Part shown: one piece after another, positions 10,654 through 57,659 of the stretch
Layout of the letters: each line of letters opens with the position of its first letter
Numbering within the stretch: position 1 is the stretch's first letter
From: a virus
Taxonomy: Duplodnaviria; Caudoviricetes
Virus record (IMG/VR): IMGVR_UViG_3300017791_000194
Coordinates: 10,083 to 74,082 of that record
Strand: one strand, 5' to 3'
Length of the DNA: 64,000 bases
The notes under the pieces: model-generated
What the model was told of the DNA's origin: nothing
Database searches by the model: none
What the model saw: the letters and a program-made list of their open reading frames with translations, nothing else
Position numbers and translations under genes: made by a program

Positions 10654-10910
10654 GCGACGAGCCGTACAACCCGGTCAAGGCCGTCGTGATCGACACGATC
10701 AAGGCGCACATCCCGAGTCTCTCTGACGAGGATGAGGAAGCAATCCACGAGAAGGTCGTCAACTACACCTTCTCGCGGCTCAAGGACGACGAGGATCTAG
10801 CTGACTTCGCGATCCGCACCTGTGCGTGCGGCGTGCGGGTTGATGGGTTCTATCAGTACGCAGATCATCTGATCAGCATCTTCGGTGGCGAAAGTCACTT
10901 CGGCGGCTGA
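10650..10910 (+). CDS. hypothetical protein with CxC; homolog of the array 2 target
   Basis: GTGA overlap; C-terminus ISIFGGESHF matched in frame by array 2. Confidence 0.75.
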   Translation: MSDEPYNPVKAVVIDTIKAHIPSLSDEDEEAIHEKVVNYTFSRLKDDEDLADFAIRTCACGVRVDGFYQYADHLISIFGGESHFGG

Positions 10911-10912
10911 TC

Positions 10913-10997
10913 ACCATGCCATGCCTCGCCATGCCGCACCAAGGCTGACCGAGCCTCAGCCCGCCCCGCCAAGCCACGCCGCGCCATGCCAAGGCTT
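10913..10997 (-). ncRNA. GGY-NN array 2 (17 units)
   Basis: Uninterrupted register; TAGTAT on - strand at 11001-11006; tgatcagc/gctgatca stem downstream. Confidence 0.8.
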
Positions 10998-11008
10998 CAC
11001 ATACTAAA

Positions 11009-11187
11009 GGCAAGCCAAGCGGAGGCTAGGTGCGGCGTGGCCAGGCTCGCATTGGCGAAGGCCGGGACCGGTACGGCAAGGCTCGGCGAGGCAAGCGATG
11101 CCGGGGCTGGGTTCGGCGGGGTTTGGTGCGGCCGGGCGTTGGCAAGCGGGGGCATTGGCGGGGGCTGGCCCAGGCAGGGCGAGGTTC
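11009..11187 (+). repeat. GGY-NN array 3 (degenerate, ~33 units, with indels)
   Basis: 5-nt periodic GGC/GGT with register slips; divergent from array 2. Confidence 0.7.
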
Positions 11188-11210
11188 ATCTACGCGTACA
11201 GGAGATCAAC

Positions 11211-11411
11211 ATGGCAACAAGGAACCCTCGGATGCTCAGCCCTGCGGCGCTTGCGAAGCAGCGGGCGTTCGGGACAGAGCGACACACCGTTGAGTCCATC
11301 AACTACATCACTGACGAGCTGACCTGCTCGTGCGGCAACTGGACGGGCCCTGCGCTCGATCTCGCTCCGTTCCGAGCACATCGTCGTCAGTTCTTCAAGT
11401 CAAGGCGATGA
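11211..11411 (+). CDS. small CxC protein (66 aa)
   Basis: aggag SD before ATG 11211; the upstream ORF extension is array translation. Confidence 0.65.
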   Translation: MATRNPRMLSPAALAKQRAFGTERHTVESINYITDELTCSCGNWTGPALDLAPFRAHRRQFFKSRR

Positions 11412-11413
11412 GC

Positions 11414-55156: not shown

Positions 55157-56100
55157 GCGCGCTCCTCGATGAAGTGGGCGACCGTTCTGCCAACGCCAAC
55201 TTCGAGCGGCACGAACTCCTCGGCGTACAAGCCCAACGGCTTCAGCGTGTCCGGCTCGCCGAGCACTACCGATCGCTCGTCCTCGCCCGGCCGCATCGGC
55301 AGATGGTTGAGCGGAATGACCTGGCCAGTCTGACGCAGCACCTCTTCAATCACGACCTGGGCGACCTCGTTGACTGTCGTCGCCCGGCCGGTCCCGGCCG
55401 AGAATGTCCGGGGCTTCTCAGGCTCAGCGACGAGCCCAGGGGCGGCGAGCGGACCACCGGCCGCGGTACTTTCGAGCGCAGTCACCAGGACCTTGGCCAC
55501 GTCAGCAACGAAGATCATGTCCATGATCTGTTCGCCGTCTCCGTAGACCTCGATTGGCTCTCCCGCGAGAGCCCGACAGATGAATGACGGCATGATCTTG
55601 CGGACCTTCGACGGCCCGTAGGGCGCAGCCGGTACCTGTCGGGGTCCGTAGGCATTGAGTGCCCTGACCACGGTGATCCGCCCACCCCTGTAGCGGTTCA
55701 ACATCTCAGCGAACCGTTCGACGGTGTTCTTGGTGATCGAGTAGGTGTTGTTCATCCAGAAGTTGCCGACAGCGATGTTGACCATCGGCAAGCCGTACTG
55801 GAGCGCCGCTTCCATCACGTTCAGCCCGCCGAGCACGTTGGTGGCGGCAGCCGGGCGTGGGTTCTTGATGGTCTCCTGCGTGCCGAGAACCCCGGCGAGA
55901 TGGATGATCCCGTCGGCATGGGCGGCGGCCTCGGTCACCGCGACCTCATCCCGGATGTCACCCAGGACAACCGTCGCGCCCTCTACGCCCGGCCGCCATC
56001 GCGTATCGAGTACCGAGACGTGGTAGCCGCGCCAGAGAAGCTCTTCGACGACGTAGCGCCCGATGAAGCCATTGCCGCCCGTGACCAGCACCGTTCTCAT
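55153..56100 (-). CDS. NAD-dependent epimerase/dehydratase
   Basis: GGNGFIG and YSITK motifs. Confidence 0.9.
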   Translation of the reverse strand: MRTVLVTGGNGFIGRYVVEELLWRGYHVSVLDTRWRPGVEGATVVLGDIRDEVAVTEAAAHADGIIHLAGVLGTQETIKNPRPAAATNVLGGLNVMEAALQYGLPMVNIAVGNFWMNNTYSITKNTVERFAEMLNRYRGGRITVVRALNAYGPRQVPAAPYGPSKVRKIMPSFICRALAGEPIEVYGDGEQIMDMIFVADVAKVLVTALESTAAGGPLAAPGLVAEPEKPRTFSAGTGRATTVNEVAQVVIEEVLRQTGQVIPLNHLPMRPGEDERSVVLGEPDTLKPLGLYAEEFVPLEVGVGRTVAHFIEERA

Positions 56101-56759
56101 GGGTCCCCTCGTGCTTCGAGCCAACCGTTGTGGCAGGTCGTCAAGCCGTAGAGGGCAAGGTCGTGGCGCTCGAAGCGGGAGCCCTGTTCTGTCAGCAGGA
56201 ACTCATCGATAGCAGGCTGAACGCCAGAGACGTTCGGCCAGATCGATAGATCGAGTTCGTCCACGACGCCGTCTTCGACAACGAACCAGCAGCCGTGTGA
56301 AACGAGAGAGGCGTAGTTCGCCAGCGCCTCGGATGTTGAAAGCAAGGTGTGTGCAGAGTCGTCGATGACCATGACCCGCCGCCCGATGGCGAACTCACGA
56401 ATGTGGCGGATGACGACCTCGTCGGCGAGCGCCCCAGTGATCACCTCGATGCGCTCATCGTTGATCTGTCTGGGGGCAGTGATGTCGACCGTGATGACTC
56501 GACCGCCGCCTGCCAGTACATCGAGCTGGTCGGCGAACCAGACGGCGCTGCCGCCATCGTAGGTGCCCATCTCAATGATCAGATCGGGCCGCGAGCGTTC
56601 GATGATGTGCTGGTAGGTCCGCAGATCTTCCGGGAACTTTGCCAGCGTTCGTCCACGGTACGTGTCCTGCGTGTGCTGGGCGAGCCGGGCCCGCCAGTAG
56701 GCGAGCACGGTGTCGCTCCGGTTTACGCCGGTTGCTGGCACGCCGAAGCGCATCGACAT
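56097..56759 (-). CDS. CmcI/rhamnosyl O-methyltransferase family
   Basis: KFPEDL..YQ, PDLIIEMGT..GGS, IDDSAH, VEDG. Confidence 0.85.
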   Translation of the reverse strand: MSMRFGVPATGVNRSDTVLAYWRARLAQHTQDTYRGRTLAKFPEDLRTYQHIIERSRPDLIIEMGTYDGGSAVWFADQLDVLAGGGRVITVDITAPRQINDERIEVITGALADEVVIRHIREFAIGRRVMVIDDSAHTLLSTSEALANYASLVSHGCWFVVEDGVVDELDLSIWPNVSGVQPAIDEFLLTEQGSRFERHDLALYGLTTCHNGWLEARGDP

Positions 56760-56856
56760 CCCTCAGCACGTGAGTGAGATGGGGCGGCGGAGCCCCCCGA
56801 GGGGGTTCGAGGGGCTCAACGCCTGCCGTACCTGGGCAAGTACGGCGTGGATAAGG

Positions 56857-57030
56857 CTATGCCTTCTCAGGCTTGTTCTCGTCCTCGTACTGCTCGTCAT
56901 TCGAGACTTCGACAGCCTCGGCCGCCTCCTCGTCGGTCGGGGCCTGGTTGTCTTCGAGTGCCTCCTCGTTGGAGACCTCGACGGCTTCCTGGGTCTGCTC
57001 GTCAGAGCCAAGCTCAGGCTGTCGCTCCAT
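56857..57030 (-). CDS. small acidic protein (57 aa)
   Basis: gaggag SD before ATG 57030; internal EAVEVSN duplication. Confidence 0.65.
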   Translation of the reverse strand: MERQPELGSDEQTQEAVEVSNEEALEDNQAPTDEEAAEAVEVSNDEQYEDENKPEKA

Positions 57031-57055
57031 GGGCGTACTCCTCAGAAGTAGACTG

Positions 57056-57183
57056 TGCCCTGCGTGGCAAGGCTTGGTTCGGCTAGGTGAGGCGAGCCAC
57101 GGTTGGCCTCGGCCGGGCATGGCCTGGTGTGGCAAGGTCGGGCAGGGCAAGGCGTGGCATGGTCGACGAGTTAGGTCTCGTCG
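57056..57183 (+). ncRNA. GGY-NN array 13 (22 units) plus 3' hairpin
   Basis: Register 57056-57165; cgacgag-ttaggt-ctcgtcg at 57164-57183; TAGACT at 57049. Confidence 0.85.
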
Positions 57184-57659
57184 TAACTAAAGTTGACCGT
57201 CTCCTGGGTCCAGTTGCCAGGACCCGCATCTGACGCGACGGCCAGCTGCATCACCATGTACTTCGTGGTCGCGTTCGTGGCGGTGTAGGACGCCGAGTCC
57301 CAGGTCGCCTTGTTGCCCGACGTGAAGTTGGTGAAGGTCGTGTTGGCAATGGTCGAGGTGGCATTGGTCGGCGTCACGCCGGTCACGTAGGCCACGGTGA
57401 AGAACAGGGTCGTCGAGGTCATCACCGCGCCGTCGCCCCAGGCCTTGAAGTTGGTGACGCCGTTGGCGGGGGCAGTGTCGACCTTGAGCTTGATCCACTT
57501 CTCGTAGCTCGCGGTACCAACCGTGATCGGGTTGGCGGTGCGGTTGGCGAGGGAGTTGGTGGCGTTGTCGGCGCTGATGAAGTCGACACCGGACACCGCC
57601 GCCGACTCCGTGCCCGCCGCCGAGCCGGTGTACACCCTCACGCTGAGGCTTGCTGCCAT
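57171..57659 (-). CDS. Thr/Ala-rich virion structural protein; homolog of the array 13 target
   Basis: aggag SD, very high GC3; follows the portal. Confidence 0.8.
   Translation of the reverse strand: MAASLSVRVYTGSAAGTESAAVSGVDFISADNATNSLANRTANPITVGTASYEKWIKLKVDTAPANGVTNFKAWGDGAVMTSTTLFFTVAYVTGVTPTNATSTIANTTFTNFTSGNKATWDSASYTATNATTKYMVMQLAVASDAGPGNWTQETVNFSYDET

Follow-up and report, generated by a model that had tools for sequence, protein, structure and literature searches.

VIPR was reported in 2026 in three preprints that deal with the system (bioRxiv 10.64898/2026.04.26.720920), its structures (10.64898/2026.04.26.720927) and its biology (Lopez et al., 10.64898/2026.10.15.759431). Vipr is a small stand-alone RAMP that polymerises on vrRNA, an RNA in which GGY/NN units follow one another in tandem. 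Pairing with double-stranded DNA is through the NN dinucleotides, with one target base skipped per unit, and the skipped base mostly falls at the wobble position of a codon. A target is called at an 80% NN match, and published systems of this kind repress transcription without cutting DNA and can silence from either strand (10.64898/2026.04.26.720920). The R-loop in the published structures extends from the 3' tail end of the guide toward its 5' end (10.64898/2026.04.26.720927). Competing phages and satellites are the known targets. The hallmarks of the protein are an RRM core, a glycine-rich loop and a thumb; those of the locus are an accessory vap gene beside vipr and a structured 3' tail after the repeats. 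The subject of what follows is a VIPR system in a 64,000-nt stretch of phage DNA (the window: bases 10083-74082 of the 74,082-bp IMG/VR record IMGVR_UViG_3300017791_000194, which has direct terminal repeats) and, in particular, several of its guides that partly spell out the gene lying next to them.

Escape from a wobble-skipping guide has been held to require changes that determine amino acids (Lopez et al., 10.64898/2026.10.15.759431). There is a loophole in this argument: a Ser, Leu, Arg or stop codon can change at the positions that the guide reads and leave the protein as it was. The three VIPR preprints do not mention it. An earlier note on the window, made from the letters alone, had seen guide TC facing AGT at two serine codons and had proposed that the phage in this way evades its own guides. 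The concept of the guide on which that proposal was built is right, and already published; the two-base serine swap as a means of escape from one's own guide is attractive and unproven, and we think it improbable. Two things came out of following it up. The half-match between a guide and its neighbouring gene is real, for a minority of arrays. As for the AGT codons, the chances seem about evenly balanced that they are ordinary allelic differences from the alleles of rival phages, with the self copy being spared mainly by the rest of the guide.

A VIPR system with scattered guide genes

About 14 vrRNA arrays are found in the window, each of 12-32 five-base units in which a constant GGC or GGT is followed by a variable dinucleotide (NN); the NN strings differ among all arrays, and some units are GCC or GGG variants. 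Arrays of this sort are widespread, and a pattern scan for GGC-NN repeats turned them up in at least 120 IMG/VR contigs. Immediately beyond the first of the window's arrays lies an open reading frame (ORF; coordinates of this and the other features are collected in Table 1) for a protein with more than 6000 homologs, all of them unnamed, and no family in a Pfam search. Its AlphaFold2 model (mean pLDDT 82.5) finds Csm3, type VII Cas7 and gRAMP as the best matches in a Foldseek search of the PDB (probability 1.00, E ~1e-6), and its C-terminal glycine-rich segment is invariant in 28 homologs. Because the window combines GGY-NN arrays, a Cas7/Csm3-like fold and a target signal that exists only in the one-base-skip register (see below) with a mechanism that has been published, its phage has a VIPR system, the protein having been set against published Vipr by description.

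The small stand-alone Cas7-like RAMP is what type II VIPR systems, such as those of Escherichia phage SUSP1 and a Pseudomonas fulva prophage, also have. The window further shares with published VIPR its pentameric GGY-NN guides with hypervariable NN, the placing of the skipped base on the codon wobble, carriage by a phage, apparent targets in related mobile elements and the lack of any self match reaching 80% NN. It differs in the length of its arrays (published ones have 9-16 units) and in that its guide genes do not form a cluster next to vipr. Instead, they are dispersed over 52 kb (8987-61269) in the junctions between genes, some pointing the same way as their flanking genes and some the other, and this scattered layout is new by comparison with the arrays flanking vipr, the staggered or ribozyme-separated arrays and the solo guides of the preprints. 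A third difference is that four guides half-match the adjoining gene, which the VIPR preprints do not describe.

Class 1 CRISPR systems (types I and III) offer the next comparison: there, too, a RAMP filament on a guide RNA breaks the pairing periodically, and Csm3/Cas7 is the fold nearest to that predicted for the vipr-like protein. The VIPR period is 5 nt with 2 bases read, as against 6 nt with 5 read, and neither CRISPR repeats nor cas1, cas2 or other cas genes were seen among the ORFs checked. In the window, moreover, the sorting of self from non-self cannot use a protospacer-adjacent motif (PAM) or repeat flanks.

Guides that half-match the gene next door

When the NN dinucleotides of an array are laid on codon positions 1 and 2, guide 2 aligns with the end of the 86-aa gene that converges on it and guide 13 with the end of the similarly placed 162-aa gene. 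Guide 2 misses at three places (GC against AGC, GT against ATC and TC against AGT at 10893-10895, plus strand), the AGT being a Ser codon five codons before the TGA stop of ORF 10650-10910. Guide 13, in its first nine dinucleotides, misses at two: TC faces AGT at 57186-57188 (ACT on the plus strand, AGT on the minus strand), which is Ser158, five codons before the stop, and TG faces the TAA stop itself (57171-57173). The bases and alignments at both serines, and the difference at the stop codon, are thus as the earlier note had them. The note was also correct in calling AGT uncommon: it makes up 61 of 916 Ser codons (6.7%) in 68 high-GC3 ORFs (GC3 being G+C at third codon positions; the ORFs are a crude GC3-filtered list), and TAA ends only 7 of the 68. 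The serine coincidence is itself a sample of two codons.

Two Arg codons at which the note had seen AG against CG have to be dropped, since they lie in same-strand alignments at chance level. At 19120 the AG unit of array 19292-19431 stands opposite CGA in a 5/9 match that 66 of 200 shuffled guides equal, and at 19075 the AG unit of array 19930-19964 stands opposite CGC in a 4/8 match, a level that is routine for shuffled guides.

Short gapped alignments invite scepticism, and the matches were therefore set against guides with shuffled unit order, in 9-unit windows over 200-nt flanks on each side and on both strands. Four of 12 window arrays match the neighbouring gene significantly (0, 0, 2 and 6 of 200 shuffles doing as well), always on the strand opposite to the GGY orientation. 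A wider test drew on 258 arrays, collected from 106 other loci as well as the window; about 245 of them were testable, and four target spacings and four flank categories were used. A single combination is enriched: at a step of 3, downstream and on the opposite strand, seven arrays reach at least 6/9 where 0.8 are expected (Poisson 2e-5). The window contributes three of these (0.05 expected) and the other loci four (0.75 expected); 7/9 is reached by four arrays, with about none expected. Across the same arrays nothing departs from expectation at steps of 2, 4 or 6 or in any of the three remaining flank categories. The note's statement that the guides are wobble-blind agrees with the published VIPR rule, the signal existing only in the one-base-skip register.

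Outside the window the best cases come from two viral contigs unrelated to it. The guide at 9845-9915 of contig L104 spells the last codons of its convergent neighbour (9 of 15 units), with TG once more opposite a TAA stop, and a guide on the minus strand of L098 (5973-6038 of the reverse complement) matches 6/7, ending at the stop codon of a convergent gene. Guides tend to adjoin the self copy of the gene at which they appear to be aimed, in the window and in some unrelated contigs. This tendency is independent of the silent-codon loophole, is unreported in the VIPR preprints and bears on how new guides arise and spread.

That the half-matches are mere coincidence, with two serines lining up by luck, is already disfavoured, and we give it very little weight. 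Over the whole genome, it is true, shuffled guides reach 7/9 just as often as the real guides do, the Arg cases are at chance and the serine sample is small. Set against this, two of the four distinct 7/9 matches in the genome adjoin their own array; the enrichment is confined to a single combination of register, side and strand and recurs in unrelated contigs; silent swaps are enriched among the mismatches; and protein homologs carry the very peptide that guide 2 spells.

These matches are also far from the level at which VIPR targets are called. Over the whole guide, self match is 7/21 for guide 13 and 7/17 for guide 2, far below the published 80%, and reverting Ser and stop raises it to 9/21 and 8/17, respectively, still below that mark. 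Of 12 guides scanned against the window itself, none scores higher than 7/9 over any nine consecutive units. The self-matching units of guides 2 and 13 are the 5' units. Two more arrays have near-self sites of this kind: guide 10 in the 63-aa ORF that it abuts, and guide 12 about 30 codons into a divergent gene (Table 1).

What, then, would these guides be for? We suggest that guides 2, 10, 12 and 13 are aimed at rival phages' allelic versions of the adjoining gene, and that the self copy, as a homolog, would match part of the guide. Relatives of the 162-aa gene occur in 80 IMG/VR contigs, with a conserved C-terminus and nearly all with no array downstream; a tblastn search with the protein against GenBank phages gave no match. 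Guide 13 matches three of these relatives (L004, L005 and L006) in all eight leading units, their serine codon being TCN, and three others (L026, L032 and L034) in nine of the first 11; in L032 and L034 the match is unbroken for eight units, extending across a TGA stop and over the two triplets that follow it. Guide matches to relatives' homologous genes fall in frame. For guide 10, the homolog of ORF 20301-20492 in L089 gives 10/12, as compared with 7/9 for self. The 86-aa protein has four homologs, two of which (P0122 and P0123) retain the ..VFGGESH.. C-terminus; guide 2 spells AVFGGESHF, which is the C-terminus of P0123, where self has SIFGGESHF (Ser-Ile in place of the Ala-Val of the guide). 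The homolog of a related 72-kb genome differs at its C-terminus. DNA relatives of the 86-aa gene were found in neither viral nor metagenome contigs, and a degenerate pattern gave four unrelated sequences. When arrays of other contigs were compared with the 162-aa family, just one, apart from guide 13, gave matches (two, at 8/10).

Solo vrRNAs have been described that are likewise directed at a locus of close relatives of which the carrier itself has a copy, with wobble-aligned targets and with autoimmunity avoided through a lower self-match (Lopez et al., 10.64898/2026.10.15.759431). The targets there are vipr/vrRNA loci and the carriers often lack vipr, whereas the apparent targets of the window's guides are ordinary phage genes beside the guide.

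Serine codons facing the guides

The codon tree of the 162-aa family joins the window with L004 (90% identical) as sisters (support 0.997) and places L005 next (0.90). Since the serine at 57186 is TCT in L004 and TCA in L005, AGT is derived in the lineage of the window; its rare third base, T, is also that of the sister's TCT. On the question, raised in the earlier note, whether AGT is conserved in array-less homologs, the answer is a partial yes: AGY codons stand at this serine in 22 of 66 homologs, nearly all array-less, but AGT in just three of these (L015, L066 and L081). Serine codon families turn over briskly in this gene generally. The fully conserved Ser columns of the family are about half TCN and half AGY, with 7-13 switches inferred among 67 sequences; one-step switches of family at Leu and Arg codons are fewer in the gene, so that the pace of turnover for Ser must be called unusual.

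The note was right that, at conserved peptides, a wobble-blind guide can see silent differences only where a Ser, Arg, Leu or stop codon has swapped family. That self-avoidance needs such swaps, or that they were selected, is not supported: AGY is frequent where arrays are absent, swaps occur at serines that no guide faces, and guide 2 is separated from self by two amino-acid changes as well, over and above the low whole-guide self matches already given. Silent family swaps account for five of the 31 mismatches in seven near-self alignments, as against 30 of 1199 (2.5%) with shuffled guides (Fisher P = 0.0014), and Val/Ile-type GT/AT mismatches for four. Such an excess over random is expected with no selection at all, because a conserved peptide allows only silent swaps or conservative replacements at codon positions 1 and 2, and the spectrum as a whole is thus typical of orthologs.

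This is the core of the explanation that we prefer, in which AGT is an ordinary difference between alleles. The peptides concerned are conserved, so that self and target would be expected to differ at positions 1 and 2 by family swaps or by conservative replacements such as Val for Ile, and the observed mismatches (TC/AGT twice, TG/TAA and GT/AT) would arise for that reason. The AGT codons would be real allelic differences and would lower the self match, but the sparing of self would come mainly from the 7-12 tail-proximal guide units that have no partner in self DNA; in the case of guide 13 the guide gene itself would occupy the place of the rest of the target. For the scheme to work the guides would have to be expressed, to repress the rival gene and to leave the self site unbound.

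Several findings weigh against this explanation. Exact one-base-skip searches found no perfect target in IMG/VR for the cores of guides 2 and 13, and none in JGI metagenome contigs for the core of guide 13, so that the case for aiming at rivals is built on partial matches (73-82% across 11 units). TCN/AGY changes number 13 over 67 sequences in the target Ser column, as against 6-8 in other conserved Ser columns (Poisson ~0.03), and since the split from L004 the lineage of the window has made a single Ser family swap, the guide-facing one, among 13 shared Ser codons; together the highest-changing column and the sole swap of the lineage lean towards selection. L004, in turn, retains TCT, has the TAA stop in common with the window and bears a guide that is unlike the end of its own gene (3/9), so that the arrangement is not conserved.

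The column count and the sole swap favour the notion that AGT, and perhaps TAA, was fixed to weaken the pairing of the phage's own wobble-blind guide or of an equivalent guide of its rivals, which we regard as unlikely, though well short of fanciful. AGT is derived and has kept its third base, as a direct change of TC to AG between two rare codons would have it; both self sites carry the rare AGT rather than the common AGC; TG faces the rare TAA both in the window and in the unrelated L104; and with the first 11 units of guide 13 taken alone, self match is 7/11 but would be 9/11, the level of the published threshold, with TCN and TGA. One of the two misses of guide 10 against L089 is TC opposite AGC, there in the rival allele. 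On the other side, each of these statistics is weak (P ~0.03-0.08, on two or three cases), and L004 has made a Ser swap of its own at another serine, faced by no known guide; AGY is frequent in array-less homologs. The TAA is shared with L004, whose guide is different; guide 2 is parted from self by amino-acid changes too; whole-guide self match (33-41%) would have been below threshold even before any swap; and the matched units are 5' ones, whereas published pairing starts at the 3' tail end.

The closeness of guide and target suggests another possibility, that the half-site is the footprint of a cassette's arrival: the guide gene would have come to lie in or beside its own target, as homing elements do, leaving a remnant of the target and making a poison-antidote pair. 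In 4 of 12 arrays the match does lie no more than ~110 nt from the guide gene, and guides 2 and 13, like the guides of L098 and L104, run into a convergent neighbour at its stop codon. Guide 13, moreover, continues past the stop with two triplets of array-less relatives (L026, L032-L034), where the window has a one-base offset and then the array. The cassette of L004 is also informative. It is orthologous (3490-3600, corresponding to 57064-57165 of the window) and has in common with guide 13 a promoter-like TAGACTGT and an inner block of units that includes two unusual GCC units, while the units on both flanks differ. Guides thus seem, to judge from this pair of sequences, to turn over by blocks of units, and the gene-matching units of guide 13 belong mostly to a 5' block that is specific to the window and missing from L004. 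But the remaining 10 units of guide 13 find no match in any array-less relative, the geometry of guide 12 is another one (its site is in the middle of a divergent gene), published VIPR of this kind represses transcription and does not cut DNA, and Pfam and PHROG annotation identified no nuclease beside vipr. We consider an arrival footprint quite unlikely. The free-standing homing endonucleases that cause marker exclusion in T-even phages offer an analogy only: there, too, the gene for a weapon adjoins a form of the target that resists it, and the weapon attacks the sensitive allele of relatives that infect the same cell. VIPR is RNA-guided and probably represses instead of cutting, and no evidence of gene conversion was obtained.

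Autoregulation, in which Vipr-vrRNA would bind the end of the neighbouring gene weakly and tune convergent transcription, has little to commend it, in our estimate. For guides 2 and 13 its site would be well placed, with 0-12 nt between it and the guide gene's end, and silencing from either strand is known from published VIPR. However, the L004 cassette does not share the match, self match is far below the published target level, and the matched 5' units are those that pair last in the published structures. Other candidates were rejected outright. A stretched RNA hairpin between gene end and array fails since no more than 2 bases in every 3 or 5 could pair; a Rho-loading C-rich 3' untranslated region, two-tetrad G-quadruplexes, a CsrB-like sponge and translation of the array do not explain an ordered match in a 3-nt register.

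A bolder version of the idea can be put as follows: the guide cassettes of this clade would be selfish poison-antidote units, each having settled within or next to its own target and lying beside an allele made immune by a silent switch of Ser, Leu or Arg codon family or of stop codon. We hold it to be doubtful. It would contradict the published view that there is no escape without a change of protein. If phages do use the silent-codon loophole, that would explain how self is told from a near-identical rival with no PAM. Conserved sites poor in Ser, Leu and Arg would then be predicted to be the durable targets, and recoded guide-facing codons would be a signature from which conflict between phages could be mapped from genomes alone.

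Array anatomy and the genome setting

A TAnnnT hexamer resembling a -10 element can be read by eye 7-12 nt upstream of each array in the GGY orientation; around arrays 2 and 13 a scan for sigma-70 promoters found no site and one for terminators found nothing. Seven arrays (those at 8987, 10911, 12505, 17520, 19292, 57066 and 61180) share the end motif GGCAT GG.., and the form GGCAT GGTGA, with which vrRNA gene 2 abuts the stop codon of the 86-aa gene, is common to several. vrRNA gene 13 ends 5 nt from the stop codon of the 162-aa gene. Hairpins, again recognised by eye, follow the arrays at 8987, 12505, 21436 and 51234; guides 2 and 13 run directly into the adjoining gene.

Degenerate pentamer repeats with phase shifts occupy 11000-11620 and 19930-20035 and overlap the nominal ORFs 10986-11411 and 11442-12089. 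These ORFs are probably not genes, and the pentamer stretches may be decayed or staggered guide arrays. Guide 1 matches two array-bearing contigs, L131 at 9649-9690 (10/12) and L178 at 5553-5590 (9/12), which shuffled guides do not; the site may be antisense or non-coding, the matched frame holding a stop codon.

Table 1. Positions of guide genes, half-matched sites and neighbouring genes in the window
Feature	Position	Strand	Remarks
vrRNA gene 1	8987-9061	-	Array just upstream of vipr
vipr-like gene	9091-9732	+	Stand-alone 213-aa RAMP (Cas7/Csm3 fold), from predicted structure and fold search
ORFs downstream of vipr	9729-10028 and 10028-10408		
86-aa gene	10650-10910	+	ORF, GC3 0.79; end half-matched by guide 2
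Near-self site of guide 2	10872-10901	+	ISIFGGESHF, ten codons; 7/10 NN identical
vrRNA gene 2	10911-11006	-	TAnnnT at 11001-11006; 16 GGY-NN units at 10911-10990; ends GGCAT GGTGA
vrRNA 10	20491-20565	-	Near-self site 20385-20411 (+) in abutting 63-aa ORF, 7/9
tRNA cluster	20582-21042		Gln-CTG, Arg-TCT, Val-GAC; three genes, between two guide genes
vrRNA 12	51234-51293	+	Near-self site 51092-51118 (-), ~30 codons into divergent gene, 6/9
vrRNA gene 13	57049-57165	+	TAGACT at 57049-57054; leading GT and 20 GGY-NN units at 57064-57165; ends GGCAT GGTCG
Near-self site of guide 13	57171-57197	-	VNFSYDET and stop; 7/9 NN identical, first nine NN
162-aa conserved gene	57171-57659	-	Just downstream of portal and large terminase genes
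Portal	57681-59000		
Terminase	59236-60720		

The window has a G+C content of 63.5%, and its genes point rightward up to ~21 kb and leftward after that. Megablast of 24 kb of it against GenBank phages gave no match. Of the ORFs downstream of vipr, 10028-10408 has sub-threshold DNA-binding-like Pfam matches and belongs to an unnamed PHROG. An Rfam scan of the window returned its three tRNAs and no other match; the Arg-TCT tRNA among them reads AGA, a codon that makes up 2.6% of the Arg codons in the phage's ORFs. Elsewhere, a 1566-aa ORF and a shorter neighbour (45459-50159 and 25380-26410, both on the minus strand) are made up of coding repeats of 42 and 84 nt (14 and 28 aa). The repeats, 28 copies at 60-80% identity, point to a fibre or surface protein of repetitive build.

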